From the UHGV virus genome UHGV-0134778: DNA of 64,000 nt; one strand, 5' to 3'. The DNA comes from a virus. Positions within the stretch are counted from its first letter, which is position 1, and every line of letters begins with the position of its first letter. The translations under genes and the position numbers were made by a program. The notes beneath the pieces were generated by a model. The model searched no databases. It had not been told where the DNA came from and worked only from the letters and a program-made list of their open reading frames with translations. Of the stretch, positions 12,114-54,095 are shown in pieces.

Positions 12114-12647
12114 ATGACTTGTGCTAGAAAACCTGACGAACAACGTAACGCCTATGATGAATATGTGACACCAGAGTGGTGTGCAGAAGGGTTGTATGAC
12201 CTCATTCCGTTCCCAGAAGATTGGACCTATTTGGAGCCTTGCAGGAATAGCGCCTCAGGTGTGTTCTACTCCCGTATGCCGTTAGGATCTGCATGGGGAG
12301 AAATCCAAGAAGGTGTTGACTATCTGAATACAGAATACAACCATGTTGACTGTATTATCACCAACCCGCCGTACAGCCTGGCTCGTGAGTTTGTGGACAA
12401 GGCGTTGAAAGATGCCGACGTAGTTATTATGCTTTTGCGTCTTAATTTTCTGGAAAGCAAGGCCAGATTTGAATGGTGGCTTGATAATGCCCCTACCACT
12501 GTGATCACAATATCTAAGCGTCCATCATTCCAATCGAATGGCAGAACTGACGGGCAAGCATATGCATATTTTGTGTGGGACAAGAAGAACCGTTTAGACC
12601 TACCGCCATTTATGTGGTTGGCACCTCCGGAGGCAGACTTGAAATGA
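12114..12647 (+). CDS. dam: phage Dam-type DNA N6-adenine methyltransferase (177 aa)
   Basis: NPPY catalytic motif (CIITNPPYS); N-terminal YVTPEW region typical of small phage Dam proteins. Confidence 0.65.
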   Translation: MTCARKPDEQRNAYDEYVTPEWCAEGLYDLIPFPEDWTYLEPCRNSASGVFYSRMPLGSAWGEIQEGVDYLNTEYNHVDCIITNPPYSLAREFVDKALKDADVVIMLLRLNFLESKARFEWWLDNAPTTVITISKRPSFQSNGRTDGQAYAYFVWDKKNRLDLPPFMWLAPPEADLK

Positions 12648-12928
12648 AAATGAGTGCTAAGGACAAGTTGCACCAGTTAGCGCTAAAACGTCCTGTAACT
12701 CTCCCTGACGAGCTTAACTCCATTTATGATGCGATTGTAGGGGAGATACAAAATAAGGCGTTAGCAGGCTTTCTGGGATGCGGATTTTCGATAAATCTTC
12801 CATCACACCTCTCAGACTACTTACCACACATCGTTGGGGATTTGAGGGCAGGAGGTCTGCAGGTGGATGTTGTTGGCATCTCCCCGGAGAAAAATAACAC
12901 AGTTGCCTACTTGACAGTGACCTGGTAG
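12644..12928 (+). CDS. hypothetical protein (track ORF 12575..12928 trimmed)
   Basis: ATG at 12644 overlaps dam stop (ATGA); GGAGG upstream. Confidence 0.5.
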   Translation: MKMSAKDKLHQLALKRPVTLPDELNSIYDAIVGEIQNKALAGFLGCGFSINLPSHLSDYLPHIVGDLRAGGLQVDVVGISPEKNNTVAYLTVTW

Positions 12929-12930
12929 TA

Positions 12931-13203
12931 GTGTATTTTGTTTTCAACAAGAGGGGGTCATCTATGTATAAGTCATTTTCAATCTACTCAAGACAGACAA
13001 AACACTACACAGAGATTCTGATCACTCAGAAAAAATCTGTGGAAGGTGAGTGGGAATATCATCATAAAATGTTGCGTCCAGACTGGGTTTTTGACAGGCT
13101 TATTGCTATGATCCCTCTTGGAGAAGTATACCCTCTGACAGGTCATAGGGATGCTTGGGATTTAATTGACTATATAGATTCATTTAAGGAGCCTAGATTA
13201 TGA
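12931..13203 (+). CDS. hypothetical protein (90 aa)
   Basis: Co-oriented packed ORF. Confidence 0.5.
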   Translation: MYFVFNKRGSSMYKSFSIYSRQTKHYTEILITQKKSVEGEWEYHHKMLRPDWVFDRLIAMIPLGEVYPLTGHRDAWDLIDYIDSFKEPRL

Positions 13204-13598
13204 AGATTGAGATTACTGAAGAAGGTAAGAAAGTCTCTGGTAACTATGCAACAGTTATCCGTGATGTAATGTTCGAAGTCACTAAGATTGGCACATCCAA
13301 GGTTGGTCAAACGGTGAGTGTGCAAGGTAATATCACCTCAGGAGAGAAGATATTCATCGTAATAAAAGGCCAGGACCCTGTAGAAGGGACAGTTGGACGT
13401 GGCGGATACCTGTGTATCTCTGAAGAGCCTCGCATGCTAGTTGCTGATAACTCTACAGGTAAAAAGCGGGTATGTAACACGGACGAGGTGATGATTATCT
13501 ATCCAGTCAACCCGGATGATCCGGCAACATGGATTGTGGGAAATGAAATCTTCTCTTTAGAAGAGTTATCCTTCCCAGCTCCGCGATCTGTTCAGTAA
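13200..13598 (+). CDS. hypothetical protein (132 aa)
   Basis: Co-oriented packed ORF, start overlaps previous stop. Confidence 0.55.
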   Translation: MKIEITEEGKKVSGNYATVIRDVMFEVTKIGTSKVGQTVSVQGNITSGEKIFIVIKGQDPVEGTVGRGGYLCISEEPRMLVADNSTGKKRVCNTDEVMIIYPVNPDDPATWIVGNEIFSLEELSFPAPRSVQ

Positions 13599-13637
13599 TA
13601 ATTTATCTTACCAGGGACGGTAAAAGTAGGAGGTAGC

Positions 13638-13871
13638 ATGAAAGTTAAATTTCTTACAGATTTAGGGTACCCTTCCTTGGTTGACTGTGTTGGTAAAATT
13701 GTGGAAGCAAAACGGCTATCTGCAAACGATAATGTTGTCATGGTTAAGGGAAAAGATTTACTAGCTGCAGGTGCAGAGTCTGGCAGGATCTCTCCTGACT
13801 ATACGTATTACCTGTCTTTAAGTAATCTACCAGAACGAGGCGGCAAAGGCCTTGAAGTTGTGGAGGAGTGA
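13638..13871 (+). CDS. hypothetical small acidic protein, 'VEVVEE-tail' paralog family
   Basis: MKVKFL...GKDLLAAGA...GLEVVEE; paralogous to 17196, 17413, 18925, 19287, 19555, 20359. Confidence 0.6.
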   Translation: MKVKFLTDLGYPSLVDCVGKIVEAKRLSANDNVVMVKGKDLLAAGAESGRISPDYTYYLSLSNLPERGGKGLEVVEE

Positions 13872-13876
13872 CAGGT

Positions 13877-14413
13877 ATGCTTCTGATTAACTGGGAAGAC
13901 CTCTATGGGGACAAAGACCCTGTTGCGTTTGTTGATCGTAGGTGGAGGTACACTGAAGAACAACTGGCTGCAAAAAATTTAACTGCAAAACGCAGAAAGA
14001 TCATCCAGTGCAAGTACAAATACGCACAGTTTGCTGCAAAAGTGTCTCCACAAATCGAGAGTTTTGTACTTAAATTGTATGACGAGTACCTCAAATTCAA
14101 ATTGGATTTTGTACAGGTATACCGTGCACAGGTACGTCCAGATACCAACATCTGTAGATGGAAGGTTGTTTGTGATGGTAAAGATTTGCCGCTCAGTTTG
14201 ACAATTGAGTGGCGTTGGGGGTATCATGAGTGCGGTTTGTATGATATTTGGGATGTCATTGTAGATCCTGCTAAGTACCTGAACACAGAGGAGCTGGAAT
14301 ATATCAATAAGGTTATTCTAGATATGTTTTTCAGCTACACCCATGAAAACTCTGAGAAAGAACGGGATAATTTTCTTGACACCCTCGGCAACCACCTGCA
14401 GTGTACAATTTAA
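13877..14413 (+). CDS. hypothetical protein (track ORF 13868..14413)
   Basis: ATG at 13877 with GGAGG upstream. Confidence 0.5.
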   Translation: MLLINWEDLYGDKDPVAFVDRRWRYTEEQLAAKNLTAKRRKIIQCKYKYAQFAAKVSPQIESFVLKLYDEYLKFKLDFVQVYRAQVRPDTNICRWKVVCDGKDLPLSLTIEWRWGYHECGLYDIWDVIVDPAKYLNTEELEYINKVILDMFFSYTHENSEKERDNFLDTLGNHLQCTI

Positions 14414-14431
14414 CCTACAAAGGAGGAGCCA

Positions 14432-14635
14432 ATGAGTATAGATGCTGTGCTGATAGGTTACCTGGTAGTAGCTGTTATAACAGCAGTAATCTTGGCAGGT
14501 ATATGCATCGTGTCTACCCGAAGGGTGAAGTTTGATGATTTTATCACCATCATCACTGCTGCGCCCTTTTGGCCTGTTGTTATCTTCATCGTAATAATGT
14601 GCCTAGTTGATTACCACAAGAATATCCGTAAGTAG
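14432..14635 (+). CDS. hypothetical small membrane protein (67 aa)
   Basis: Strongly hydrophobic throughout. Confidence 0.5.
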   Translation: MSIDAVLIGYLVVAVITAVILAGICIVSTRRVKFDDFITIITAAPFWPVVIFIVIMCLVDYHKNIRK

Positions 14636-14887
14636 AAAAAGGAGAGTAGGGATGGATACCGCACCTAAAACTGTTTATACTGTTCTTAAAGAGATTGCAT
14701 TCTACGCAGATCTTAGCCGGGCACCTTTATGGGAAAAGAATATGTATTTAAAATGGTGCGTGAAATTAGGGGGGCCTTCTAATGTTTCAAGCCATGTTTA
14801 TTGAAATGCTCTCTGGGGTATTACTGCTGGTAGCCATTTTAGGTGGCGCGGCGCTGATGTATAATTATCTTGAAAAAGGGGACAGTA

Positions 14888-15073
14888 ATGACAAAAAATA
14901 AATCCTTAGAACAGGCTGAAAACCTTCTCCACGAGCTGGTAAAGGAGTGGAAAGTTGAATACTCAGATTTTAATGCAAGAGAGGGGGAAGATTATTGGCC
15001 TACGGAGCGCTCAGAGGGAGAGTGGTATCAAGATTTCATAGAATGGCTATATCAGACGTGCGATGAGGGGTGA
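14888..15073 (+). CDS. hypothetical protein (track ORF 14870..15073 trimmed to ATG)
   Basis: ATG at 14888 preceded by AAAGGGGA. Confidence 0.45.
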   Translation: MTKNKSLEQAENLLHELVKEWKVEYSDFNAREGEDYWPTERSEGEWYQDFIEWLYQTCDEG

Positions 15074-15531
15074 CGATGTTTGTTAAATATGTAAAAACGT
15101 GCCTCAACAACCTTGGTAGAGAGCATTGGTACACACTGCTTGAAAAAGGAGAAATTTTAACAAAATCTGGAAAGATAACTTTGATACCTTTGGACGATAA
15201 AGACCCGTCACTACTTGTCATAGATGATTACGTTACAGGTGTGTCGTACGAGGTATCTGTGGAGAGGTTAATACGCAGATCTGGAGGTCCTTATGACCGA
15301 AGAGAGTATGTTTTCGATTCCGTTACAGAGAAGGAAGATCCGTCTCTAATGTTTAGGATGGTAATCAGGGATATGAAATCATCTATAAATAGGATCGTAA
15401 AGGACATTAAGGAGCCTTTTAGGGTAAAAGTTAAGAAGTTTTTTGATTCTAAGATCAACATACTTGCAGTTGTGCTAGGCGTAATTCAACTTCTGTTAAT
15501 TTTGCACTATTTTGAACTGTTGTTTAAGTAA
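15070..15531 (+). CDS. hypothetical protein (153 aa), hydrophobic C-terminus
   Basis: Co-oriented ORF with ATGA overlap. Confidence 0.5.
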   Translation: MTMFVKYVKTCLNNLGREHWYTLLEKGEILTKSGKITLIPLDDKDPSLLVIDDYVTGVSYEVSVERLIRRSGGPYDRREYVFDSVTEKEDPSLMFRMVIRDMKSSINRIVKDIKEPFRVKVKKFFDSKINILAVVLGVIQLLLILHYFELLFK

Positions 15532-15591
15532 TGTGCATTATGGCACAAAGGATGTGCCATAACTAAATAAACTAAGAAAGAGGTAGAGAGA

Positions 15592-15939
15592 ATGTCAAAG
15601 ATTAAATCGATATTAATGTGGGTGGCTGTTGTAGCTTTTGTAGGATACTGGACTTGGGAAACTGAATTAAAAGATATTGGGTATACCAGTCTTGAGAGTA
15701 AGGCGTGCATTGGCATAACCGATGCATTCAGGCAGAATGCTATGGATCACGAATGTGTCGATGCAGATATAGATGAGAAACTGTCTAAGGACAAAGATTT
15801 TTACCATGGTCATGCCTTGCTTGATAGTGGTGATACTGTAGAATTCTGGTCGTGGTTCCGTGAAGATGGGACAATAAAGACAGCAGTAAAGATTTCCAAC
15901 AAAGAGTTGATGCTGTTGCAGCAGAAGGAGGTGCAATGA
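15592..15939 (+). CDS. hypothetical protein with N-terminal transmembrane segment (115 aa)
   Basis: N-terminal hydrophobic helix ILMWVAVVAFVGYW; AGAGGTAGAGAG RBS. Confidence 0.5.
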   Translation: MSKIKSILMWVAVVAFVGYWTWETELKDIGYTSLESKACIGITDAFRQNAMDHECVDADIDEKLSKDKDFYHGHALLDSGDTVEFWSWFREDGTIKTAVKISNKELMLLQQKEVQ

Positions 15940-16205
15940 TCTGGATATCCTACGCTGATGGCACCATGCTGTATACTGCAGGTACTAGATATGAAGTTAA
16001 GGAGGACGATAAAAAATTTATCGTAAAAACATTTGACAAGGACGACAACCTTTTGCTAGAATTGACTTACAAGGTTGGGGATGTATCTAGCATCCAATTG
16101 GATTGCGGTCATAAAGATAACCCGCTCAAGAAACCTGGGGTAGGTAAAGCTTCAGAAGAACGCCTGTCTCGTATTGCAGAAAGCGTTTCTGCACAAAAAA
16201 TCTAA
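15936..16205 (+). CDS. hypothetical protein (89 aa)
   Basis: Overlapping start/stop with previous gene. Confidence 0.5.
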   Translation: MIWISYADGTMLYTAGTRYEVKEDDKKFIVKTFDKDDNLLLELTYKVGDVSSIQLDCGHKDNPLKKPGVGKASEERLSRIAESVSAQKI

Positions 16206-16220
16206 AAAGGGGACTAGAAA

Positions 16221-16415
16221 ATGAAAAACTTACATTTTAACACTTATTACTACAACACTTTGAATGATTTGTATTATATTGTTCGAAGTAAAAATCCTGA
16301 AACAGTCCTATTCTGCCGCGAACCTTTCAAAGGAGAGGAAGTGGAGTCTGAGATGAATGTTAGCCAGATTACCTCTTTGTTGCTCTCAGGTGCAATGGAA
16401 GAAGCAATATTCTAA
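16221..16415 (+). CDS. hypothetical protein (64 aa)
   Basis: Co-oriented packed ORF. Confidence 0.45.
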   Translation: MKNLHFNTYYYNTLNDLYYIVRSKNPETVLFCREPFKGEEVESEMNVSQITSLLLSGAMEEAIF

Positions 16416-16433
16416 ACCAGGCGGGAGGGTTTT

Positions 16434-16622
16434 ATGAAGCACTATTGTCTGTCTGGTAGGATGGGGGTGGATTGTGATTGGGTTTTCTTAAAACTTGTCA
16501 GCGTTCGAGAGTCCATCCCAGAGGAAGAGCAAGAAAGCGAGCTGATGTCATGGATCAACCATTACGGTAACACTTTTCGGCATGTTAAGGTAGAAGAGTT
16601 GCCAAGCGAGGCTGAATTATGA
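16434..16622 (+). CDS. hypothetical protein (62 aa)
   Basis: Co-oriented packed ORF. Confidence 0.45.
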   Translation: MKHYCLSGRMGVDCDWVFLKLVSVRESIPEEEQESELMSWINHYGNTFRHVKVEELPSEAEL

Positions 16623-16915
16623 AACTTTTTGAGTGGTTTAAAAAGTTTAAATATAAAGCTGTAGCCATCGTGCCGTGGTCCATTCAGTGGGTTGATGAAG
16701 GTGGTCTACCGATACCTGGTGACAAAGATACTGGGTACTGGATTATGATGGAGAACGGGTTTGGAAAGCGAAAGTATACGTGCACAAACTCTACTCGATC
16801 TGCACTTAATAGAGTGCCTGGTTACAAACTTATGGTTGTGTGGAAAATGTCAGGCGTGCCTCCAGCCAATGCTCAATTTCTTACTGACAATCCGACCACG
16901 GTAGAGGGAGATTGA
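16619..16915 (+). CDS. hypothetical protein (98 aa)
   Basis: ATGA overlap with previous gene. Confidence 0.5.
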   Translation: MKLFEWFKKFKYKAVAIVPWSIQWVDEGGLPIPGDKDTGYWIMMENGFGKRKYTCTNSTRSALNRVPGYKLMVVWKMSGVPPANAQFLTDNPTTVEGD

Positions 16916-17199
16916 TAATGAAAAAGATTAACAGTAGTGAAGTAGAGTTTAAACTTGTCGGAAAAGGCACTTACTGGGAAGTTCGTCAAAAGGTATATTT
17001 GTTCGGTCTTATTCCCTACTGGTCTAAATTCTACTGGGGAGCTAACGAGTTGGGAAGATACGCCACCAAATCAATGGCACTTATTGGTATAGCAGAGTAC
17101 ATTGCAGCCCGAGACAGGGTTGGAACCACTTATTACTACACTGCTGACGATATTCGTAACAGTGTTTACGTCCCACAACCACCTGATGGAGACCGTTGA
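16912..17199 (+). CDS. hypothetical protein (95 aa)
   Basis: ATGA overlap with previous gene. Confidence 0.5.
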   Translation: MIMKKINSSEVEFKLVGKGTYWEVRQKVYLFGLIPYWSKFYWGANELGRYATKSMALIGIAEYIAARDRVGTTYYYTADDIRNSVYVPQPPDGDR

Positions 17200-17423
17200 T
17201 GAAAGTTAAAGTTTTAGATTCAAGCTTCTATATTGGTCAGGAGCCTTTAGTAGGAAAAGTGTTTACTGCTGTCCCTAACGAAGATTACCCTGACCTTTTA
17301 AAAATAAAAGGAGCAGATCTTATTGCCGCTGGTGCATCTCAGGAATGCTTTGACAGTCAGTGGACCTATAACTTTGCCCTAGGTGAGGATGTAGAGGTAG
17401 TGGAGGACGATCATGAAGGTTAA
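17196..17423 (+). CDS. hypothetical small acidic protein, 'VEVVEE-tail' paralog
   Basis: MMKVKVLDS...GADLIAAGA...EDVEVVEDDHEG. Confidence 0.6.
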   Translation: MMKVKVLDSSFYIGQEPLVGKVFTAVPNEDYPDLLKIKGADLIAAGASQECFDSQWTYNFALGEDVEVVEDDHEG

Positions 17424-17667
17424 AATTCTTGATTCTAACGTCTACTTGGGACAATCCTTCCTGAATGGAAAGGTCGTTCCTGCGGTATACTTTGAAGGGT
17501 TGCCGTGGGATGATCCTGTGCGGCAACATCACAGTTATGTAGGCCACAACGTGGTGTTTATCTTGGGATCAGACCTGATCACCGCTGGTGCACCTGAATA
17601 TTATTTCGGGGAAGAGTCCTACTATGCCTTTGGGGTAGGGTCAGATGCAGATATTGTAGAGCTGTGA
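17413..17667 (+). CDS. hypothetical small acidic protein, 'VEVVEE-tail' paralog
   Basis: MKVKILDSNVYLGQ...SDLITAGAP...SDADIVEL. Confidence 0.6.
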   Translation: MKVKILDSNVYLGQSFLNGKVVPAVYFEGLPWDDPVRQHHSYVGHNVVFILGSDLITAGAPEYYFGEESYYAFGVGSDADIVEL

Positions 17668-17679
17668 TGGGTAACCGTT

Positions 17680-18078
17680 GTGAAAAATAAACTGTTTAAA
17701 GTTACAATGAAAATTCGCGGAGCTTGGAGCGTAAAGCAAGGGCGCATCCCAGAGTTTGAGAAAGACTTCTACGTAGTCTCCACCTCTGAAGAGGCTGCAT
17801 GCTGGCAGGCTGGATATGCCTATGCAAGAACCTGGTACGAAGGATACCAGACTGGAGGCTATGACGGAGAAATTGTCAGCAAGGGTGTGGAAGAAATTAA
17901 TGTGTTGACAAGTGAAAAAGTTTTTGTTATAGTGCATCCTGATTCTAGAGTGAAGCATTACTGGAATGCCAGAACAAAAACCTGGACACCGTTTGCAGAT
18001 TCTGCTACACCGCTTTTAAACCAGAAAGCTCTTGACTCTGCCCCAAGCTATGGGGTTGTTGAAGAAAAGATAAGCTGA
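17680..18078 (+). CDS. hypothetical protein (132 aa), paralog of 19887..20282
   Basis: Shared pattern HPxS...YW...WTP...L with 19887..20282. Confidence 0.6.
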   Translation: MKNKLFKVTMKIRGAWSVKQGRIPEFEKDFYVVSTSEEAACWQAGYAYARTWYEGYQTGGYDGEIVSKGVEEINVLTSEKVFVIVHPDSRVKHYWNARTKTWTPFADSATPLLNQKALDSAPSYGVVEEKIS

Positions 18079-18095
18079 AATAGTGGGGTACTTAC

Positions 18096-18386
18096 ATGAT
18101 GGATTTAGTTTTGGACACTGATAACACCGAATCGTTTAAAAAAGATGGTGTAATAAGCATGGACCAACCCTGCCATGCCAAGATTGACTCAAAATGGACC
18201 TACAAGTTTGACGGTGAGATCTTCGCAAATGATGAGAAGGTCGTGGATGCTGTAGCCATTTTAAACGCTTTAGGGTATGACCCTGTGAACTCATTGATCA
18301 AGGATCCTGTTGAGTTTGCAGAGTATGTTCGTAAAATGGCAGATCTTGCAGTAGATATTTTAAAAACTATCGACGACAAGCTGTAA
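18096..18386 (+). CDS. hypothetical protein (96 aa)
   Basis: Co-oriented ORF. Confidence 0.5.
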   Translation: MMDLVLDTDNTESFKKDGVISMDQPCHAKIDSKWTYKFDGEIFANDEKVVDAVAILNALGYDPVNSLIKDPVEFAEYVRKMADLAVDILKTIDDKL

Positions 18387-18392
18387 AAACTG

Positions 18393-18421: not shown

Positions 18422-18468
18422 TATTTTCAAAGAGGGTTTGGTTCCCTCTTCTTTAAAAGGAGCACGTT

Positions 18469-19550: not shown

Positions 19551-19554
19551 GAAT

Positions 19555-24279: not shown

Positions 24280-25802
24280 CACACAATTAGTTGCCCGGCT
24301 AAAGTGCTGGAAGCACCCATAACATCTTCCAACTAAATTTCCTACCAACACAGTTACTTACCCACCACACATGACTGTTTGCTTGTTTAGTGAGCAGTCA
24401 TCCCTTGACATTCTTGCCTATCTTGATAAAATTAAGTTCTTCTCTTTTCTTTTACCGAGTAATTCGGGTTTTCTGTTCTCTTCGGTTTGAAGGGGTATGG
24501 AGATACACCTGAGTGAACAGGGTGAACAACCGAACCTTTAGCTATGGCATTAGCATGGCGAAGCGGACGGGTGACGAAAGAGGGGCCGGAGGACACCAGT
24601 CACTGCCATATAGTATATGGGTGATAACCTGAAGAGTCTGAATAAGTGTTTAAGTACCAGTCAGAGGAAAAGGTGAATGGTAGCCGAAGGGGGAGGGGGG
24701 TTTCTTATATCTTTAATTTGTATACTTTATATACACTTGTAAACCAATTCAATTAGGATCTGTTTACCACACAAAGTGGATGGAGACAAATATCACCTAT
24801 TAAACTTGAATTATTTATAGAAAATACCACAACACTACTTAAGTCTTTGATTTTACACACAAATCCTACAGATACTCACCCTCCATATTTAACATACTTG
24901 TAACATATCCCATACTCTACCTGTCTGATCAATTTACCCAACTACATCCCCATATTTTTCCTGTCTGTACTACCCCTGCCCCGCCGGGAGTCCCGTCATA
25001 TCTGGCTTCCCAGCAAATATCACACCCACAAATATCATTGCCTGAAGAGGGTTTCATCCCATAATACACACCTTGCCTGAAGAGCGATTCATACACCAAC
25101 TAAATTTTTTAATTGACCCCTCCCCGCCGCCGGAGAGGTTGGCTTTTCCCACACAGGCCTGAAGAGTCAGCCAGAAATATCTGAACAGGCCCAGTTATAC
25201 CACGATTTTGACATGACCGACAGGAGTGCTACCCTGTCAGGAGCCGGTAGCGACTGGAGTGCTGCCAGGCGGACGAAATGGGAATACTTCTCATTCTTAT
25301 AACAATTCTCAAATATCGAGGCAGTGAGGCAAATTAATAGGTGAGGCCGTTCACACAGTGGCACAACATTTGCAACCTATCTTGTGGGGTGAATGAGAAT
25401 ACCTATCATTGTGAGAATAGTTATCATTACGGGCAATTTAACATAATACCCATTATGCGCACCACTGGCGATACATACAGGGATTGATAACATGGGTTAC
25501 TGTTTACGCACATAACAATTATATTTCTTACTATTTGTGCGGGATATAGTTAGCAACCAATAGATTAGATATTGACCTGCGGACTTCTGACCGTCCAGAC
25601 GTCTAAACGCCCACACAACAAGGGTTATACATACATTCCTGAATGTAAACAGGGCCGCAAAAATGCTACCATACCAGTTTGTAAATTTTTCATGCAGCAC
25701 TTGACAAAGAGGAGAAAAACTTGTCTGACACTTTTGCCACTTTTGACACTTTTACCTTTGACACAATATGACACAATAACGGCTGTTACTATTCCATATC
25801 TC

Positions 25803-25858
25803 ACTGTTTACGCATAGACTGTTTACGCCTGAATAGTTTACGCCCAAACTGTTTACAC
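25803..25858 (+). repeat. four tandem iteron-like repeats ACTGTTTACGC
   Basis: ACTGTTTACGC at 25803 and 25818, AGTTTACGC at 25835, ACTGTTTACAC at 25848; further copies near 25508 and 26322. Confidence 0.7.
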
Positions 25859-25869
25859 AGAGATGATGA

Positions 25870-26163
25870 GCCATGCCATTCGTTTGCATGAAAACAATTA
25901 ACAAGATAACAATTAACAAGTTAATAATCTTTCGCTGGCTATGCCAGGTGACTAGGTCACCCCTTCGGGCGTTTATATGACATAATATAAAAGCAGGGCA
26001 ACTATTAGAAGATCTATAGTTGCCTTGCTTGTTATGTCATGATTAACTAAATACAAGGCAACTATGATCTGAGTAATAGATTGCAGAAAAACTATCACGG
26101 GGGTGATGGTTACTGCTTTTATATTATGTCGCGACTCCGTCGCGCCATGCCATTCGTTTGCAT
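25870..26163. repeat. composite element: 20-bp direct repeats flanking 18-bp inverted repeats and GGCAACTAT hairpins
   Basis: DR GCCATGCCATTCGTTTGCAT at 25870 and 26144; IR GACATAATATAAAAGCAG (25979-25996) vs CTGCTTTTATATTATGTC (26113-26130); GGCAACTAT/ATAGTTGCC four times; palindromes GGTGACTAGGTCACC and GCGACTCCGTCGC. Confidence 0.7.
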
Positions 26164-26780
26164 AGTTGCCTTATTGTTACAGGTAAAATAATTACATTAT
26201 TAATTATTTCTTATCTTTCTCTTAGTCATCTAATGATTCCAGTCAGTATAGTAATGTACAGTAAACATTAGACGACTAAAGATTTCTCTGTTTATGATAA
26301 CTCATCGTGATAATTTCGGGCTGTTTACGAAAAATGTTGACACCTGAGCTGATTTATGTTATGCAGTCTACACGAATAATTATTTTATGCAGGTATTGAC
26401 TATTCCGTTATTCTGTGGTTGGAATAAATACTTTGCAGGCTATAGAATGGCGTGCGTACGTGAATTCTGAGATCTGGCGGCTATAGTTATACTCGATTTT
26501 TCGCGTAGAACACGCTTTAGATGCTGTGTAAGTGTATGACTTATAAAGATTTTTAGTTGTTGACAAGATATTGGAGATGTGCATCAGGTTAAAATTTGTG
26601 CAATAGCGGCATTACGTGCACTTTTGGGAGAGAAAACGGGTAAAAATGGACTTGCTACCACACAATGAAAAATTATGCAATAGTTATTTTCCATGTATAT
26701 TTGTACAGTATGTGGGATTGATGGCTAGTCAATTATTCCACTTGCCAGGTAGGGCCGTTTATGGTAGGAGAAGAGCAGAC

Positions 26781-26805
26781 AAAAAGAAAGGGGCCTAAGC
26801 CCCTT
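26781..26805 (-). terminator. intrinsic terminator ending the minus-strand block
   Basis: On minus strand AAGGGGC-TTAG-GCCCCTT hairpin followed by TCTTTTT. Confidence 0.6.
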
Positions 26806-45837: not shown

Positions 45838-48615
45838 TTAGTGACAATCACCCCAGTTACGACCACACAAGTATTCACCTGTGATCTGGAACGGAACGCC
45901 CATCATTTTAGAAGCTTGCCAGAAGCAATGTACCACCATTTCGCCCACAGGGCTCCAGATAAGTTCAAGCTTTCCGTCATCGTTCAAGATAGGATCGTAT
46001 ACCGTATTTCCATCCCTGTCAACTACTTCGTTTCCTTCTTCATCCTTGCGTGCCTTTTTGTACTTATGACCGTCGAACACATGAAGTTTAGCCTCCTGCT
46101 GGGACTTAAATGTTTCCAGCTCTTCAATTGTGTCGAAGGTGTATACAGTTTTATACTTAGGTGTGTCAGGGACTTGAAGTTGATATTCGTCATGGTAATA
46201 AATAATACGACGAACACCCTCATCATACCATCCACGCTTCACCATCTGGTGGTGCATGAGTATCCCAACTAAGTCACACAATGATGCACCGCCATTTTGC
46301 TGATATGCATTAAGCAAAGAGTGTTTAGATCGGGTCCAAATGGCATGACCGTCAAAAGAGTAGATAAATTTCTTACCTGTTGCTTCCCAGAATTTCTCCA
46401 GATCCTCTTTACGACCCTTAAGACCTGGGTTGGCATCCCAGAGAGCGTCAATTACTCTCTGTCCCAGTTCTGGAGAGATATCTAGCATATCTGCAACTTT
46501 ATCTTTTTGTGCCCCGTACATAACCCCATACGTGACAGGCTTACCATCGTTACGAGACACCTCCCTGCCTGCTACTTTTGTATATGCCTCAGCATTGTTT
46601 TGGTGCGCATCTCCGTTACTTACAACATCATAATACAGACCGTTGTCAAACTCAAAGGCACCCCAGGCCCCGATGAGCTGCTCTAAGTTGGACCCGTCAA
46701 TACCGATCTCAAAGTATCCTGGAGGAACACCCCACAGACTACGCATCTCTTTACCCATAACCACTTTAGGAGATGGTTTAGGCATGTTTGCACAAATGCT
46801 GTGTTTCTGTCTGGAAGTGTTTGTTAATCCAGAACTTTTAGCAGGAAGCTTATGGTCAATCTTCAAACGTGGATGATTAAGAAGACCAGTATCAACCTTA
46901 TCCTCCTTGATTGGATCAAGGACCGATCTACGGTTTCGCAAGGATAACCACAAGACGATATCTTTAGCCATCTCTCCGTTCAACTTTTCAAGATTCGGAC
47001 ATAGGTGTCCAAACGTATCTTTCAGTTGCGGAGAAGTAATAAGCGCTCTGGCTTTTCTACGTATCTTCCCAAACACTTCCTTTTTAATCCTTTCTGAGTT
47101 AGGGAAGCTTCGGAACTTGTGCACGGTTGTCTGAAACTTAGCATCAGTTTTGTTCCAGAAGTTGATAATTAGGTCACAATACTCTGACTCTAAAAGCTCG
47201 TCCATATATGCATATACTCGTGCATCAACATCAGCATCAGGCAGAGCTTTCTTCTTGCTGTCCTTGGTTACATCTTTAGTTCTCCACATTGTTGGGAGCC
47301 AACCAGCGCTGATCAAATATCGCTTAATATCGTCCTGGTTGCTGATCTTCATAGGTATCTTGCAGTCAGGCATCCGCTTCTGCTGCAGATCACTTATTGC
47401 CTGATCCATTAGTTCTTTAGGTAAAGGATGTGGTGTAGAGGTTCCTTTGATATACCCCCTCAAGAAATCAGCCATCTTATCTGGGTCTTTACAGCCCATC
47501 TCTTCACACCATTTTATCCCCATTTTGCTGACATCCCCTGTGGAGGTAAATGCTCGCTTAGGAGGAGCTTTGAACTCTAAAGCGCTCATGTCCACAGGAT
47601 AGCCAAGCTTGTCTTTTAACCATTTCCAACCATTATTGGAGATTGTCCCATCCTGGTTAAACGGCTTTTCAGGGAACTTAGGCCGCTGAGACATTGATAA
47701 CTCTTTTAAAGGAAGTTGTGGTTCAACACGATCAGCGATCTCCTTCATCCACGCATCGCAGCGGTCACGTAAAGCAATAGCTCCATCTATGTCGAAATAC
47801 ACACCCTGTCGAGCCTGCAGCTCCATCAGGAAATGCTGCAGCATGCCTCGGCGTAATGCATTCTTCCAGGTAATCTTCTTGAATCCTTTAGGCTTCTCTT
47901 TGGCAGGGTCATACATAAAGTTCTGCATGTCAGATTTGCCGTAGAATACACCTTTTGATTCCGCTACCAACTCTTTCCAGAGCAACTCCTGGATGATAAC
48001 GTCCTCGAACACACGATCCACATATTTCCACAGCGGAAGCTCACGCCAGTCATCGATTTGAACTTTCTGGTTACCAAGGGCATAGCCCCATGCCATAAGG
48101 CCATGAGGTCCAACAGGCTGCATTTTCTTGGTAACTGGATTGAATACTGCGTCCGGACAACCTTTTGGCAAAGGGCGGTCAGGCCACAAGATTCGACTCA
48201 TCGCTAACGTATCAAACAGATTAACCTGGTGGTCGTTGATAGTTCCCATGCATTTAGGATCACGGAACATATCAAAATGAATACCGGATAATCTTTCCAT
48301 CAGCATAAAGTCGTAACTGTAGCAGTTATGGCAGTTCAAAGCCGTAGGTGACCAGTCTGAATTGCCTGTAAGCCAGCCTTCCAACTCTGAAAAATCTGCT
48401 ATGCGAGCCTCAAAATCTGTATAAAGGGTCTTCTTTGCCAGAATGAAGTTCTTAGCTTTCTCCACATCCTCTTCAGAGTAGTGTGTGCGGTCATTTAGAG
48501 GAAGGAACAGCATAAAACGGTTCTTATTCAGCTCTTTAAACAAACCGCAGTGATAATAAAGATCTGGGTCTTCCAGCAAGCCAGAGGCCTCAAAATCGAA
48601 CGACCACATGCTCAT
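45838..48615 (-). CDS. DNA polymerase, family A (Pol I/T7-like) with 3'-5' exonuclease domain (925 aa)
   Basis: Exo I FDFEASG; Pol A motif A IGIDGSNLEQL; motif B RNDGKPVTYGVMYGA; motif C YYHDEY. Confidence 0.85.
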   Translation of the reverse strand: MSMWSFDFEASGLLEDPDLYYHCGLFKELNKNRFMLFLPLNDRTHYSEEDVEKAKNFILAKKTLYTDFEARIADFSELEGWLTGNSDWSPTALNCHNCYSYDFMLMERLSGIHFDMFRDPKCMGTINDHQVNLFDTLAMSRILWPDRPLPKGCPDAVFNPVTKKMQPVGPHGLMAWGYALGNQKVQIDDWRELPLWKYVDRVFEDVIIQELLWKELVAESKGVFYGKSDMQNFMYDPAKEKPKGFKKITWKNALRRGMLQHFLMELQARQGVYFDIDGAIALRDRCDAWMKEIADRVEPQLPLKELSMSQRPKFPEKPFNQDGTISNNGWKWLKDKLGYPVDMSALEFKAPPKRAFTSTGDVSKMGIKWCEEMGCKDPDKMADFLRGYIKGTSTPHPLPKELMDQAISDLQQKRMPDCKIPMKISNQDDIKRYLISAGWLPTMWRTKDVTKDSKKKALPDADVDARVYAYMDELLESEYCDLIINFWNKTDAKFQTTVHKFRSFPNSERIKKEVFGKIRRKARALITSPQLKDTFGHLCPNLEKLNGEMAKDIVLWLSLRNRRSVLDPIKEDKVDTGLLNHPRLKIDHKLPAKSSGLTNTSRQKHSICANMPKPSPKVVMGKEMRSLWGVPPGYFEIGIDGSNLEQLIGAWGAFEFDNGLYYDVVSNGDAHQNNAEAYTKVAGREVSRNDGKPVTYGVMYGAQKDKVADMLDISPELGQRVIDALWDANPGLKGRKEDLEKFWEATGKKFIYSFDGHAIWTRSKHSLLNAYQQNGGASLCDLVGILMHHQMVKRGWYDEGVRRIIYYHDEYQLQVPDTPKYKTVYTFDTIEELETFKSQQEAKLHVFDGHKYKKARKDEEGNEVVDRDGNTVYDPILNDDGKLELIWSPVGEMVVHCFWQASKMMGVPFQITGEYLCGRNWGDCH

Positions 48616-48673
48616 ATACAGTTCTCCTTAAAGGGGAGGCGGTTGTACTACCCCTCCCACTCTTGGTTAAACA

Positions 48674-50752
48674 TTAAAAAGGTGTTTCGTCGTCTTCAAA
48701 ACCGGGGACGTGGTTAGAGGACGGATCATCATACTGAGGATCTTCCTGTGTGTCAACTGGGGTAACAGTAGGAGTTACAACCTTATCAGCCACAACCTTG
48801 CCCACAGGTGTTTCCACAACTGCATGATCTTGATCCTCAAACATAGCCTGAGGTCTCCAAACAACCTCCCCACCTTCTCCGTCTGTAAACATTTGCATTT
48901 CTTTATCCCAGTACCAATTGCTGGCATCGTGGAACTTGCCTGTGTGAGGATCCATAACTAAAGTGTCCGCAATACCTAGGGTTTTTGCTGGGCGGTTTTT
49001 AAGACTTACCAGTCGGACACGTCCACGGGAACGATCCACCATCTCTTCTGCTTCTACCCCAACAACTACCCAGCTGAGTTGCTCCAATCCGGCACTACCT
49101 CGAAGGTTCTCTTTTCGTACAGGGTACCAGAAAGGCAACGGATTCCCATCCTTATCCTTAGGAGGTACAATCTCTGTACGTTTCAGGTGAGCAATCACCA
49201 GGATAAACACATTAAACTGCTTACAGAACGCGGCTAGTTGAGTCATAGCCATGTCAAGTTCTTTGCGCTCATCCTTAACATTAAGCCCTGAAATCACCAT
49301 AGACAAGTGATCCAGCACAATGTAACGGCAGTGATACAGGCACACCATTTGTTTAAGCTTAGTGATCAGCTCATCCACAGGGATGGAGCCGAAATGCTTG
49401 AACACTTTGATTTTTCCGGTCTTGGCCCAAGATTGATGAATCTCAGCGTGCTCCTGGTCGGTCAGGAACTGACTGGGGTCTTCAACAAACTCTTTAACAT
49501 CAAACCCCAGCTGGTTAGCGTACAGAGAGTTGATTGCTTCCTCAGGATCCTCTTCAAGGTGAATCAGACACAGGCGATCATCCTCTTCATAATCATCAGC
49601 TTTAGGGCATGTTGGATCCATCAAGTATCTTGCAATGCAGTGTTCCAGCTTCTTGGCTATAGTTGTTTTACCACCGCCAGATGGGCCTGTTAGCATCATC
49701 AAGGTGCCTTTGTGGAGCCCTTTCAGCATCTTCTGCAATTTAGGGAACTCCGCACTGATATCCACGCCATTGGAAGTCTTCTTACGAAGAGATTCAATGG
49801 AGAAGTCTTCTAAATCAGATACAGCATCAGGCACATATTTGACTGGGTGACGGAACATGTTGACAATATCTTCCAGCTTTTTAGCCTTCAGCATGTCACG
49901 AATATCTTTTACACCATCGGGATCGTTTACCTCTCCTGGGTATTCCACGTGGTAAACGTTGTCAGCCATTAAAAATGCTGCGATATTATGTGTGGCTTCA
50001 ACACCTTTGATAACGTGTTTTTGCTTCTCTACCTCGTTAGCTGCATCGTTGTCCATTGCAAGGACCACTGTTCCATAGCTACGGATAAATTTCTCATTGT
50101 TCGCAAAAGTGTCTACGGCGTTTGCACACCCGCAGTTAATTCCAACAAAAGGCAGGCAGGGTTTTCCTGCCAGGTCTCCGCCGTTGATAACTGCATCAAT
50201 CCCATCTTGAACTTCTTTAGCCCACTGCTTCACCTTCGCTGGGGCTTTAGCATTGGTGAGAATGCCCTTCACTTGTATCTGATATGCAGCTTGCCATGCT
50301 GCAATAACATCACCCTCCCCCTCGCAGACGTTAATCTGTTTACGGTTGTTGGAGGATGCACACAGCTTTTGACCAAACATCTGAGAGTTGGCCTTTACTA
50401 TGCCAACAACTGAGAAATGGCCTCTTTGCTCTTTAGGGATTGTCCAGTCACGCTTTTTAAAGCCGGATAGATTACCGTAGCGGTCGTAATATGGGAAATA
50501 TGTTGCGGTGACCGTTACCCCGTCTTCCTGAGACAATGCTGATCGCACACCAAAATATTGTGCAGCCATCAGTCCGATATTTTGTTGTGGAACAGGGACA
50601 ATTTTAGTATTTTCTAAAACAGTCTCTACAGTTTCAACCTCTTTTTCATCACGATAGTCTCGTTTCACACTTCCCCCACTTTTATACTTAGTTGCTTTCG
50701 GGTTTGGCTCACCGAAACGGTTGTATGCAGATGCCATGAATTTACTGCCCAT
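48674..50752 (-). CDS. primase-helicase (TOPRIM + DnaB-like helicase; T7 gp4-like) (692 aa)
   Basis: TOPRIM acidic motif VCEGEGDVIAAW; Walker A GPSGGGKT; acidic C-terminal tail ending DDETPF; no N-terminal Cys4 zinc finger. Confidence 0.75.
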   Translation of the reverse strand: MGSKFMASAYNRFGEPNPKATKYKSGGSVKRDYRDEKEVETVETVLENTKIVPVPQQNIGLMAAQYFGVRSALSQEDGVTVTATYFPYYDRYGNLSGFKKRDWTIPKEQRGHFSVVGIVKANSQMFGQKLCASSNNRKQINVCEGEGDVIAAWQAAYQIQVKGILTNAKAPAKVKQWAKEVQDGIDAVINGGDLAGKPCLPFVGINCGCANAVDTFANNEKFIRSYGTVVLAMDNDAANEVEKQKHVIKGVEATHNIAAFLMADNVYHVEYPGEVNDPDGVKDIRDMLKAKKLEDIVNMFRHPVKYVPDAVSDLEDFSIESLRKKTSNGVDISAEFPKLQKMLKGLHKGTLMMLTGPSGGGKTTIAKKLEHCIARYLMDPTCPKADDYEEDDRLCLIHLEEDPEEAINSLYANQLGFDVKEFVEDPSQFLTDQEHAEIHQSWAKTGKIKVFKHFGSIPVDELITKLKQMVCLYHCRYIVLDHLSMVISGLNVKDERKELDMAMTQLAAFCKQFNVFILVIAHLKRTEIVPPKDKDGNPLPFWYPVRKENLRGSAGLEQLSWVVVGVEAEEMVDRSRGRVRLVSLKNRPAKTLGIADTLVMDPHTGKFHDASNWYWDKEMQMFTDGEGGEVVWRPQAMFEDQDHAVVETPVGKVVADKVVTPTVTPVDTQEDPQYDDPSSNHVPGFEDDETPF

Positions 50753-51506
50753 TAATTCTGCTCCTTACTGCAGGCTCGTTTGCTAAGAATACAGCTTTAG
50801 CCCAGCCACGTGGTGTGAGGCTTCGAATCATCTTCGTCCTTGCACTCTTTCCACCTAGCTTAGCGTGTTGCATAGAATAACCGCTAACCGCATCCACTAT
50901 TTGCGGGACAGGTTTTGTGGCTGGGATTATAAATCCATTGCCTATCCAACCGCAAGTTATTTTTGGGTAGGCATCACGTGGAGCTATAAATTCAGGAAAC
51001 CATGGGTTTACATCATCTTCTGGTAAATAACCGCCATAATCTGAAGGATGAAAACGATAATCAGGTTTTCGCCACAGTGTGGACATAACCCCCACAGGGT
51101 TCTCTACATGCCACGGGCAATCGTAAATCTCTCCCAACTCTTCTGCAACCCGAGCATCTTTTACAGCATTAATTTGAATCAGAGGGTCCTTAGCCAGCTT
51201 TTTCTTAAAATGTGCAGCGCCTGATACTGCTAGATGCGTGCACGGAGGAAATGCAAGAATAAAGTCTGGAGCTGGGTACATGCAAAAAGTTTCTTGAGGG
51301 AACCACGGGTCAATCCAATAATCCACGTAGTGAATGTTTGGATGATCTGTTATCACCTCTGCATAACTGCCATGGTCAGCGCCTTCTGCGTTAAAGCACA
51401 GGCACAGATATCCAGCTTTTGCCCAGTCAATGACTGCACCGCCAGATCCGTCAAATAGACTCCACACAACACCTTTGTGGTGGTGTTCTTTATAGATAAA
51501 TTTCAA
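50742..51506 (-). CDS. C5-cytosine DNA methyltransferase-like protein (about 254 aa)
   Basis: Motif I LFDGSGGA, motif IV AFPPCTHLAVSG, motif VI HVENPVG; start moved to TTG at 51506 with AGGAGA RBS because the track GTG start lies inside the terminator hairpin. Confidence 0.55.
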   Translation of the reverse strand: MKFIYKEHHHKGVVWSLFDGSGGAVIDWAKAGYLCLCFNAEGADHGSYAEVITDHPNIHYVDYWIDPWFPQETFCMYPAPDFILAFPPCTHLAVSGAAHFKKKLAKDPLIQINAVKDARVAEELGEIYDCPWHVENPVGVMSTLWRKPDYRFHPSDYGGYLPEDDVNPWFPEFIAPRDAYPKITCGWIGNGFIIPATKPVPQIVDAVSGYSMQHAKLGGKSARTKMIRSLTPRGWAKAVFLANEPAVRSRINGQ

Positions 51507-51519
51507 TTTGCTGTCTCCT

Positions 51520-51551
51520 AATGCAAAAAGCCCCACCCTTTCGGGCAGGGC
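51520..51551 (-). terminator. intrinsic terminator (same sequence as 41384-41405)
   Basis: Minus strand GCCCTGCC-CGAAAG-GGTGGGGC then TTTTTGCATT. Confidence 0.55.
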
Positions 51552-51557
51552 CTAGTG

Positions 51558-52040
51558 TTAAACCCGGATACCTATTGTATACTCGGTGGATACCAATGTC
51601 AAATCTAAATTTAAAATTTCTTGCATCTCATAGTATGCATCCAGGGTGAGATACATTTCCCCATCCTTTTCTACATACTTGTCCAAGTGCTTGAGGCATT
51701 TCGGATAACTATCAAGGGCAGCCTTTAGGCACTCAAACTCTGTGCTGTTGATGAGTCCTTCCATCTTGGCTACCCGTTCTGGGGTAACGATAGCACTGTA
51801 GTGAGATTTAGCTTCCTGGATGCAATGGGTCCAAGCATCAACTTTCTCTTCGAAAAGTCCGAAGAACTTCTTTTTGGTGAGCTTCAGATTCTTTAAGTGC
51901 TTAAGCACTCGGTTACCGATCACGGCCACATCACGAAACTTAAGGATCACTTTGTCGATATCCTCGCGGCCTATTTTCACAAAGCAAGCCTCACACATTT
52001 CAGGAGCTGCGTAACCTACTTTCCACATAAAATCTGACAT
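51558..52040 (-). CDS. hypothetical protein (160 aa)
   Basis: Co-oriented ORF. Confidence 0.55.
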   Translation of the reverse strand: MSDFMWKVGYAAPEMCEACFVKIGREDIDKVILKFRDVAVIGNRVLKHLKNLKLTKKKFFGLFEEKVDAWTHCIQEAKSHYSAIVTPERVAKMEGLINSTEFECLKAALDSYPKCLKHLDKYVEKDGEMYLTLDAYYEMQEILNLDLTLVSTEYTIGIRV

Positions 52041-52052
52041 AACACTATCCCC

Positions 52053-52451
52053 TTATTCTTCCTGAAAAGCAACGATATCATATGAACTTGCAGACGATCC
52101 TGGTGAAGAATGACTCCAGTCTAGGTCATCAGAGTAGTCAGCGTACTGTGCACCACTACGTAGTTTATATTTTACCCACTTACCTGGTGCAGGGTTTTCA
52201 CCACCTTCCCATACTTCCCAGCCTTCTGGCAGGCCGTCCTGGGGACAGTCATCCACCTCACTAATAATCTTAGGGTTTGGCACCAAGATCCCTGCAGGCT
52301 CTTCCTTCCGGATAAGTGTCCACACAACGTAGGTGTCTGAGCAGGCGCATGATAGCAAAGTATATCCACTATTCAGAACTTCTGCAAGCTCTTTTTCAGC
52401 ATCTTCCAATTTGGTTAAGTGGTATTGGATAACCTTCACACCTGTAATCAT
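52053..52451 (-). CDS. hypothetical protein (132 aa)
   Basis: Co-oriented ORF. Confidence 0.55.
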   Translation of the reverse strand: MITGVKVIQYHLTKLEDAEKELAEVLNSGYTLLSCACSDTYVVWTLIRKEEPAGILVPNPKIISEVDDCPQDGLPEGWEVWEGGENPAPGKWVKYKLRSGAQYADYSDDLDWSHSSPGSSASSYDIVAFQEE

Positions 52452-52795
52452 CAGAAACCTCCCACTTCTTCAGCAAATGCAGCTGCTGTCGTCGCTGCAT
52501 CCAGATAGGACTCTAGTTCACGGGCTGCACGTTTGTAAATTGAGTGGCGCATATCGTTTGGCAGTTTGTGGAAGTCCACCTCTTCACCGTTGTGGTAAAC
52601 ATGCACATCGGTAATTTGTCTAAATCCGTAATAGTCAACATCAGAATCACGGCACTCTGGGTCTGGCAACTGGACAACTGCCTGAGCTTCCACAGTGAAC
52701 ATCTCGTCAAGTTCGAAATCGATTTCAAAAGTGTATGGTTTATAACGTTTCATCATTTGATTGTACTCTTTATTGGTCAGACTTATCTTTCGCAA
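52451..52795 (-). CDS. hypothetical protein (114 aa)
   Basis: Overlapping stop/start. Confidence 0.5.
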   Translation of the reverse strand: MRKISLTNKEYNQMMKRYKPYTFEIDFELDEMFTVEAQAVVQLPDPECRDSDVDYYGFRQITDVHVYHNGEEVDFHKLPNDMRHSIYKRAARELESYLDAATTAAAFAEEVGGF

Positions 52796-54095
52796 TTAAG
52801 GTCGGGGTAAGTTTGTAATAACGGAAGCCACCACCACCTTCCCAGTTTACAGACTTAGAAATACCACCTTGATCTTCACCATCGATCACTTTTTCCAAGC
52901 GCGGAATAATATGGGTATGACAATGATCACCTAGCTCGATTGAGATCCAACGTCTTTTCATCTTGTGAGCTACAGCAGCAGTAGTTCCCGAACCACCGAA
53001 TGAATCCAATACCAAATCGCCTTCTCGCGTACACATTTCGAAAATCCGCTTCAAAAGCGCTTCTGGTTTTTTCCCATTTTTGAAACTAACGCCGCCTTCA
53101 TTTGCTATTCCATTCCAACTAATGTCTGTCCAAACATCAGTTATTAGTTCCGCAGGTTGCATCTCACCGTCAATTTCCAAAAGCCTGTTGGAGTAAAAGA
53201 CCATTTGCCTACCATTTGCGATATAAAATCCTTCAACATCTTCATTTGGATGTACATAAACCTTATCCCTGTCTTTCTTTGACTTCTCGATAGTTTCTTT
53301 TCTCTTTATTTTAGCTCCACCGCCAATTGCAACAGATTGAAATACACGTTCTGCATTATCAATTGCGAATTGTGCTAATTCATCATCGAATGTATCAGGC
53401 AGTTTTTTCTTGGCTTCTTTTGCATCTTTATAGCCATTGGCCTTTGCAAACGCATCGGCAATACCGCACCACGTCCAATTTTTATAATGGTCATCCGGGT
53501 TTAATAGGTATTTGTTATATCCTGTATCATACCCTTTAGGTATATAGATTTTGTTAAGCGGTTTCTTGGTGCGATCTTTTGCATATACAAGCAAAAAGTT
53601 TGCTGTGGAGAAAACTGTGGCTCCTGTTGCCTTAAATCCCGAAGGAGAATTTGTGGTCATCGATATGGTATTTAACTGATTTGCACGACCAAAAATCTCG
53701 TCCATCAAAACTTTTAAATATGCCATTTCGCAATCATCTAAGTGAACGAATATTACCCCATCATCACTTAGAAGATTACGAATTATTTCTAACCTATCCC
53801 TCATTAAGCCCAGCCAAATGGAATGCTCCAGGCTATCATCGTAGTGCTCAAAAGCCCTCCCGGTATTGAATGGTGGGTCTATGTAAACACACTTCACTTT
53901 GCCTGCATACTCTTGCTCTATCGCCTTCAATGCTAATAAGTTATCTCCAAAAATCAGTTTATTATCAAAAATATCGTTTTCGGTCACTTTCTGGCTGTGG
54001 TAAGATTTGCTAGAATCTTCTAACAAAATGTACGGCTCTAACTTTTTGCGCTCGTTTTTACCTATCCAGGTAAGTTCTAATTTGGTTTTACTCAT
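52770..54095 (-). CDS. DNA methyltransferase, beta-class amino-MTase (N6-adenine or N4-cytosine) (441 aa)
   Basis: Motif IV DPPF (VYIDPPFN) precedes motif I (LDSFGGSGTT), the beta-class order. Confidence 0.75.
   Translation of the reverse strand: MSKTKLELTWIGKNERKKLEPYILLEDSSKSYHSQKVTENDIFDNKLIFGDNLLALKAIEQEYAGKVKCVYIDPPFNTGRAFEHYDDSLEHSIWLGLMRDRLEIIRNLLSDDGVIFVHLDDCEMAYLKVLMDEIFGRANQLNTISMTTNSPSGFKATGATVFSTANFLLVYAKDRTKKPLNKIYIPKGYDTGYNKYLLNPDDHYKNWTWCGIADAFAKANGYKDAKEAKKKLPDTFDDELAQFAIDNAERVFQSVAIGGGAKIKRKETIEKSKKDRDKVYVHPNEDVEGFYIANGRQMVFYSNRLLEIDGEMQPAELITDVWTDISWNGIANEGGVSFKNGKKPEALLKRIFEMCTREGDLVLDSFGGSGTTAAVAHKMKRRWISIELGDHCHTHIIPRLEKVIDGEDQGGISKSVNWEGGGGFRYYKLTPTLIAKDKSDQ

Follow-up and report, generated by a model that had tools for sequence, protein, structure and literature searches.

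Escapers of phage Bas51 (Escherichia phage WalterGehring, MZ501111) that evade the retrons Asa1 and Squ1 are mutated in an 'N6 adenine methyltransferase', and engineered D69G, D79G and T83P mutants of Bas51 abolish the retron defence (Nakamura et al., PLoS Biol 2025, PMC12548924). In the Hanrivervirus K42 (KarlJaspers-like), a 711-bp dcm gene triggers retron Ec86; expression of the K42 Dcm enzyme raises the 5-methylcytosine (5mC) content of the multicopy single-stranded DNA (msDNA) of the retron, as determined by mass spectrometry after liquid chromatography (LC-MS), whereas the C82A/E128A/K175A/K176A mutant does not (bioRxiv 10.1101/2023.08.16.553469; Cell Rep 2024 according to PMC12916289). 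In the BASEL study the Vequintavirinae were described as 'exceptionally susceptible' to restriction systems (PMC8594841). Here we analyzed a 64,000-nucleotide stretch of the virus genome UHGV-0134778 (the window in what follows), which encodes three DNA methyltransferases, ORF1, ORF2 and ORF3, that an initial annotation had taken as a sign of layered protection against restriction or of DNA hypermodification. We consider it highly probable that these are three intact S-adenosylmethionine-dependent DNA methyltransferases marking phage DNA at short specific sites, with narrow protection as a result and without hypermodification. Most of this feature is ordinary and essentially known: multiple methyltransferases are a conserved and annotated trait of rV5-like phages, ORF1 has been characterized directly, and a close member of the ORF2 family has been characterized in a relative, both as experimentally identified retron triggers. 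What is new here, modestly, concerns ORF3: one specific E. coli type III mod gene is its source, of which it is a truncated copy with sharp limits.

A megablast search with positions 48000-56000 and 10000-15000 of the window gave more than 110 near-full-length matches at 92-97% nucleotide identity, all to rV5/FV3-like Vequintavirus genomes including FV3, rV5 and the three closest to the window isolate, S127 BCL3, ECP26 and B9-1. On these alignments, the window is part of the genome of an rV5/FV3-like E. coli phage of Vequintavirus. The complete genome of Bas51 was used for comparison. All three open reading frames were recovered at the coordinates and with the motifs initially annotated, and their profile matches are far beyond chance: ORF1 matches phrog_799 ('DNA methyltransferase') with E = 5e-67, ORF2 matches phrog_757 with E = 4e-87, and ORF3 matches PF01555 with 145.7 bits over a cut-off of 26.7 (E = 2.6e-42). 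They are thus three intact methyltransferases of different classes, conserved and already annotated in many GenBank records, and partly characterized. Because Pfam, NCBIfam and PDB sequence searches were weak for ORF1 and ORF2 (comparison of both with PDB sequences gave noise only), these two were assigned by means of PHROGs, AlphaFold2 (AF2) models and fold searches.

ORF1 (12114-12647, + strand) encodes a minimal gamma-class N6-adenine DNA methyltransferase of 177 residues. It contains the motifs YVTPEW at residues 17-22 (motif X), LEPCRNSASG at 40-49 (motif I) and NPPY at 84-87 (motif IV). The same gamma-class order, DxYxTP (X), LEPCxGxG (I) and ITNPPY (IV), runs through an alignment of 32 homologues, in which N84, P85 and P86 of the catalytic motif IV are invariant and a separate recognition domain is absent. 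The AF2 model (predicted local distance difference test score, pLDDT, of 88) has a class I Rossmann-like fold, and its best Foldseek matches are type I HsdM, CamA, M.BseCI and PacII (E values of 1e-5 to 1e-4). In Pfam and NCBIfam only sub-threshold matches were obtained, with 20.1 bits against a cut-off of 26.4 for EcoRI_methylase, 19.2 against 28.1 for Dam (PF05869) and a score of 16.1 against 97 for TIGR01712; no Pfam match to a Dam of the E. coli or T4 type was found. The label 'Dam-type' given initially to ORF1 consequently holds for the methylated site, GATC, and fails for the family: membership of the Dam family was rejected on the sub-threshold PF05869 score, the gamma-class motif order and the gamma-class fold. 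Of note, motif I of the Vequintavirus ORF1 proteins (window 12231-12260) is atypical, with a two-residue insertion (NS) and without the usual GxG of distant homologues (EPCxGxG); this does not prevent the enzyme from being active in Bas51.

The product of ORF1 is identical over 177 of 177 residues to bas51_0176, the only one of the four annotated Bas51 methyltransferases that has D69, D79 and T83. In the T83P mutant of Bas51, the number of N6-methyladenine (m6A, also written 6mA) sites at GATC falls from 1405 to 35, while at GTAC they stay level, with 509 in the wild type and 511 in the mutant (PMC12548924, S4 Table). We counted 703 GATC (1406 adenines) and 258 GTAC (516 adenines) in the Bas51 genome. 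With 1405 methylated of 1406 GATC adenines and 509-511 of 516 GTAC adenines, both motifs are therefore almost completely methylated in Bas51. This bears out the initial assumption that methyltransferases of this set act on phage DNA, since the ORF1 protein of Bas51 is the same as that of the window. In the window itself we counted 345 GATC and 132 GTAC, which is proportionate to the numbers in Bas51. In all, the methylation of GATC on phage DNA by ORF1 has been shown experimentally for the identical Bas51 protein. Expression of the ORF1 protein in E. coli is toxic, and two retrons are triggered by this protein (PMC12548924).

ORF2 (50742-51506, - strand) encodes a compact C5-cytosine DNA methyltransferase of 254 residues belonging to the phrog_757 family; an alternative GTG start at 51536 would extend it to 264 residues, and the gene overlaps the start of the primase/helicase gene by 11 nucleotides. 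Its orthologue in Bas51 is bas51_0074. Its motifs are FDGSGG (18-23), PPC (87-89), ENP (135-137) and IRSLTPRG (227-234). C89, E135, N136 and P137 are invariant in 29 homologues, as is the FxGxG motif. No match was found in Pfam, NCBIfam or PADLOC; PF00145 gave no hit up to a limit of E<=1, and among the 120 ORF2 homologues listed only 3 have a precomputed PF00145 hit. The fold is DNMT3-like, and the fold search returned C5-methyltransferases only. A word-indexed search placed 3545 proteins in the ORF2 family, an exhaustive search gave 1018 clusters at 50% identity, the best 150 of which are nearly all 200-290 residues long, and the phage records with a member of the family number 1504, among them Drexlerviridae, Dhillonvirus, Vequintavirinae and Phapecoctavirus.

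The initial annotation had suggested that so short a protein may lack a target-recognition domain and could act on nucleotides or another non-canonical substrate. These observations support neither suggestion. The compact length is common to the whole family, and between motifs VIII and IX lies a 72-residue insert (151-222), far smaller than bacterial target-recognition domains, whose conservation equals that of the catalytic core (majority fraction 0.69). This suggests that the recognition element is compact and shared by the family, not that it is missing. As for the substrate, the fold is DNMT3-like and ORF2 is 54% identical over 237 residues to the Hanrivervirus egaa protein egaa_9, a protein with the length and the key residues (C82, E128, K175 and K176) of the published K42 Dcm; K42 Dcm puts 5mC on msDNA. 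The catalytic cysteine, the glutamate of ENP and the lysine of PK(K)T align between ORF2 and egaa_9 at a constant offset of seven residues. By analogy with K42 Dcm, we infer that ORF2 makes 5mC in DNA, and its target site is probably CCWGG. The K42 Dcm experiments were performed in the dcm+ strain MG1655, in which host Dcm does not trigger Ec86 and control msDNA is low in 5mC; the K42 enzyme alone was reported to be toxic (bioRxiv 10.1101/2023.08.16.553469). The absence of triggering by host Dcm and the low control level mean that the true site of the K42 Dcm family may differ from that of host Dcm.

ORF3 (52770-54095, - strand) encodes an orphan beta-class N6-adenine methyltransferase of 441 residues. 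DPPF (73-76) precedes FGGSGTT (366-372), which is the order of the beta class, and in a comparison with PDB sequences type III Mod subunits score best (6k0w, 4e-28; EcoP15I Mod, 4zcf, 5e-24). The PADLOC profile MTase_III (PDLC03636) matches with 676.5 bits (E = 8.5e-204) from position 2 to 444 of its 575 positions. In a large protein database the homologues of ORF3 are almost all 560-600 residues long, and among them is a 567-residue E. coli protein that is 96% identical to ORF3; ORF3 ends at 'KDKSDQ' and the E. coli Mod runs about 125 residues further. Other ORF3 homologues of about 440 residues exist in metagenomes. Of 5426 complete E. coli genomes, 24 carry the full-length mod gene, which is about 94.8% identical to ORF3 at the nucleotide level; strains with the full-length Mod include SMN152SH1, CFSAN004176 and 2014C-3011. 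In E. coli SMN152SH1 the gene is part of a defence island at the selC transfer RNA (tRNA) gene, with a gene for a 912-residue type III Res directly downstream (REase_III, 9e-191). A blastn comparison of window positions 52001-55000 with this island gave a block of homology to the 5' part of the chromosomal mod gene (52761-54108, - strand; 93.8% over 1363 nucleotides), the limits of which are sharp: it begins 11-13 nucleotides upstream of the start codon and ends at the stop codon of the phage gene. The missing C-terminal part of Mod has no homologue in the window or in the Bas51 genome, nor has Res, for which a tblastn search with the E. coli Res found nothing in either, and the 456-residue helicase that adjoins ORF3 is RecD-like and not REase_III. 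The absence of Res and of the C-terminal part and the solitary position among replication genes make ORF3 an orphan derivative and not a restriction-modification system.

The dN/dS ratio (nonsynonymous over synonymous substitution rates) of ORF3 is 0.10 in the comparison with the E. coli gene and 0.12 in that with the Bas51 orthologue (bas51_0070), which indicates that the truncated gene is under purifying selection. At an identity of at least 80%, ORF3 occurs in about 88 phage records, compared with about 117-121 for each of ORF1, ORF2 and a fourth methyltransferase described below; ORF3 is therefore an accessory gene. On the most economical reading of these comparisons, ORF3 would be an orphan Mod, captured by the phage, that guards phage DNA from the cognate type III system by methylating it beforehand. 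More specifically, it is possible, and we propose it only tentatively, that a 1.36-kb 5' fragment of mod was captured recently and serves as a dedicated counter-defence against this one host system, by pre-methylating its asymmetric site and perhaps, in addition, by forming dead-end mixed complexes with host Mod that prevent the assembly of Res. A literature search with the accession of the E. coli Mod, WP_024226319, gave no result. The identity of the E. coli homologue with EcoCFT_II, a system used in the BASEL study, was also considered and rejected, no strain named CFT073 being among the 35 matching genomes; the BASEL plating data can therefore not test ORF3. The selC stretch of SMN152SH1 is a composite defence island (locus 4115-13464), in which the Mod-Res genes stand beside a mads1-type helix-turn-helix gene, a DrmD-like SNF2 gene (PADLOC DrmD, 1e-208) and AbiD, together with a gene for a 206-residue protein without a PADLOC match.

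Methylation of GTAC persists in the Bas51 mutant of ORF1. Its attribution to ORF3, as the one remaining adenine methyltransferase, was dropped when the Bas51 annotation showed a fourth methyltransferase, bas51_0200 (MZ501111 124069-124887), a gamma-class protein of 272 residues with EPSAGRGSF followed by GNPPFG and a weak match of the Eco57I type. The window has no homologue of bas51_0200; the closest relative encodes one about 1.1 kb to the left of the position corresponding to the window start (OQ626344 48913-49749), and about 121 Vequintavirus records contain the gene. Type III Mods usually recognize asymmetric sites, which favours the fourth enzyme for GTAC. We therefore lean towards assigning GTAC to the fourth enzyme and to ORF3 an asymmetric motif, which may be among the 349 (approximately 350) m6A sites classed as 'other' in Bas51. 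A literature search on GTAC methylomes returned papers on H. pylori, archaea and other organisms than E. coli. Among the 4-bp palindromes of the window, CTAG and GTAC are the most depleted (observed/expected ratios of 0.54 and 0.68) and GATC is as frequent as expected (1.01); GTAC is thus depleted although it is fully methylated in Bas51.

How far do these marks protect the phage? In the BASEL raw data, Bas51 plates on EcoRI with an efficiency of about 1e-4; on EcoRV and EcoP1 its plating is below detection, and on EcoCFT_II the values range from 0.06 to less than 1e-5 (PMC8594841). Such strong restriction implies that the DNA is not globally modified and, since the systems are unrelated, that any protection is site-specific. 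Judged from the established sensitivities of the enzymes, ORF1 would protect against MboI-type (GATC) and ORF2 against EcoRII-type (CCWGG) restriction. The layered protection initially proposed is thus overstated, only few sites being covered by methylation; the probable origin of ORF3 from a host type III Mod fits a targeted anti-restriction role. The same data speak against hypermodification. In our view it is very improbable that the methyltransferases, above all ORF2, are part of a hypermodification pathway or have free nucleotides or some other non-canonical molecule as their substrate: Vequintavirus DNA is cut efficiently in vivo by EcoRI, EcoRV and two type III systems, XbaI served to digest rV5 DNA for pulsed-field gel electrophoresis, and no hypermodification partner was found in the window or in the complete Bas51 annotation, which lists no TET, glycosylase-type or other hypermodification gene. 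The small size of ORF2, which had inspired the idea, is shared by about 1000 clusters, the VIII-IX insert is conserved, and the K42 enzyme matched by egaa_9 makes its 5mC on DNA.

The enzymes might instead serve mainly the biology of the phage itself, in replication, packaging, escape from mismatch repair or the timing of expression, with anti-restriction as a secondary effect. ORF2 and ORF3 do lie within the replication module, beside primase/helicase, DNA polymerase and the RecD-like helicase, and in about 120 genomes the genes for ORF1, ORF2 and the fourth methyltransferase belong to the core. Phage P1, moreover, needs Dam methylation for packaging. In dam+ dcm+ hosts, GATC and CCWGG are already methylated by the host itself, which leaves the phage marks little to add against restriction. 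Against such a role stand the viability of K42 phages without dcm (bioRxiv 10.1101/2023.08.16.553469) and the titres of Bas51 ORF1 loss-of-function mutants on K-12, 1-4e10 against 5-6e10 for the wild type (PMC12548924), which are close enough to show that GATC methylation is not essential. The derivation of ORF3 from the Mod of a restriction system and its accessory distribution point to defence evasion, and we regard a primarily physiological function as unlikely. A different doubt concerns ORF3 only, which could be an inactive remnant of mod or could act without methylating, for instance by poisoning the host Mod-Res through mixed dimers unable to bind Res. It lacks some 125 C-terminal residues found in nearly all of the 560-600-residue bacterial homologues, and at 96% identity to the host Mod a mixed assembly is conceivable. 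However, DPPF and FGGSGTT are intact, the low dN/dS values speak against a pseudogene, the 441-residue form has been kept in about 79 phage records at 95-99% identity, and the metagenomic homologues are of about that length; we hold this explanation to be decidedly unlikely.

We thus favour three methyltransferases that would methylate short specific sites on freshly replicated phage DNA, ORF1 placing 6mA at GATC and ORF2 placing 5mC in DNA, probably at CCWGG, so that the phage bases would stay ordinary 6mA and 5mC. ORF3, presumably derived from the Mod of an E. coli type III restriction-modification system but lacking the C-terminal part and a Res, would pre-methylate the phage genome at the recognition site of that system, so the phage would survive in the minority of E. 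coli strains that carry it. The enzymes come at a cost as well, the GATC activity of ORF1 triggering the retrons Asa1 and Squ1 and an enzyme of the ORF2 family triggering Ec86. Several points weigh against this scheme. ORF1 mutants plate normally on K-12, so that any benefit of ORF1 is putative. The CCWGG site of K42 Dcm comes from analogy with host Dcm and from one mutated msDNA site (bioRxiv 10.1101/2023.08.16.553469). The argument for the activity of a Mod without its C-terminal part is purifying selection, and for the GTAC methylation left in the ORF1 mutant there are two possible sources, ORF3 and the fourth methyltransferase.

Resistance to restriction cannot be predicted from a count of methyltransferase genes, since these phages rank with the most restriction-sensitive ones of E. 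coli, and the same genes can expose the phage to retron defence. ORF3, for its part, looks like a clean case in which a lytic phage has taken over the methylase component of one particular restriction system of its host, and it could explain differences in the host range of therapeutic rV5-like phages on the approximately 0.4% of E. coli strains that carry the system.

According to the annotation of the closest relative, there are two modules: one on the + strand contains genes for nucleotide metabolism and early genes (thyX, nrdAB, nrdDG, PhoH and a ClpP-like protease), and one on the - strand is devoted to replication (DNA polymerase, primase/helicase, RecD-like helicase and rIIA/B). The small ORFs next to the methyltransferase genes (51558-52795, 54157-54498 and 12644-12928) have no Pfam match, and the window contains 0 tRNA genes and 0 Rfam matches. 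The gene at 13877-14413 (+ strand) is the orthologue of bas51_0171, a Bas51 'putative glycosidase' in which a premature stop leads to escape from Retron-Asa1 (PMC12548924). Its product has no Pfam match at E<=0.01, and the glycosidase label is therefore unsupported here. At the junction of the + and - strand gene blocks lies a stretch of about 2.5 kb (24300-26800) in which no ORF exceeds 81 aa and relatives have no annotated coding sequence. It contains three GTTTACGC...GTTTAC iterons spaced by 15 nucleotides (25806-25856), an exact 20-nucleotide direct repeat at 25870 and 26144 and nested inverted repeats (25979-26179), with neither a tRNA gene nor an Rfam match, and may be an origin of replication or a regulatory region. 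Finally, several 'Campylobacter phage' records of the MG0656xx series (A135, C9, A13b, D# and others), labelled as C. jejuni phages, match the window at 92-99%, at the nucleotide level or in their methyltransferase proteins. They resemble E. coli Vequintavirus genomes, and the true Campylobacter phages CPt10 and CPX show only about 40% identity to ORF3; the host labels of these records may be wrong.

Compared with known systems, ORF1 is the same protein as bas51_0176 (177/177) in the same neighbourhood, downstream of the ClpP-like protease and PhoH, the window being a different isolate. Its product, 6mA at GATC, is that of the alpha-class Dam enzymes of E. coli and T4 and of PF05869. In contrast to these, ORF1 has the gamma-class order X, I, IV in 177 residues without a separate target-recognition domain, and its structural neighbours are HsdM, CamA and M.BseCI and not Dam. 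ORF2 belongs to the same compact family as K42 Dcm, with a DNMT3A-like fold and aligned catalytic residues, but it is 18 residues longer and the second lysine of the KK pair is replaced by isoleucine (PKIT); its gene lies in the replication module of a myovirus, that of K42 in a siphovirus, and its activity is putative. Relative to M.HhaI, M.HaeIII and E. coli Dcm, all of PF00145, ORF2 is about 70-220 residues shorter and has no PF00145 match, the large variable target-recognition domain of the bacterial C5-methyltransferases being replaced by the family-conserved insert of 72 residues. ORF3 shares with the type III Mods of EcoP15I (4zcf) and H. pylori (6k0w) the succession of DPPF, target-recognition region and FGGSGTT. 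Unlike type III restriction-modification systems, the phage has no Res partner, and ORF3 stands alone among replication genes without the approximately 125 C-terminal residues.

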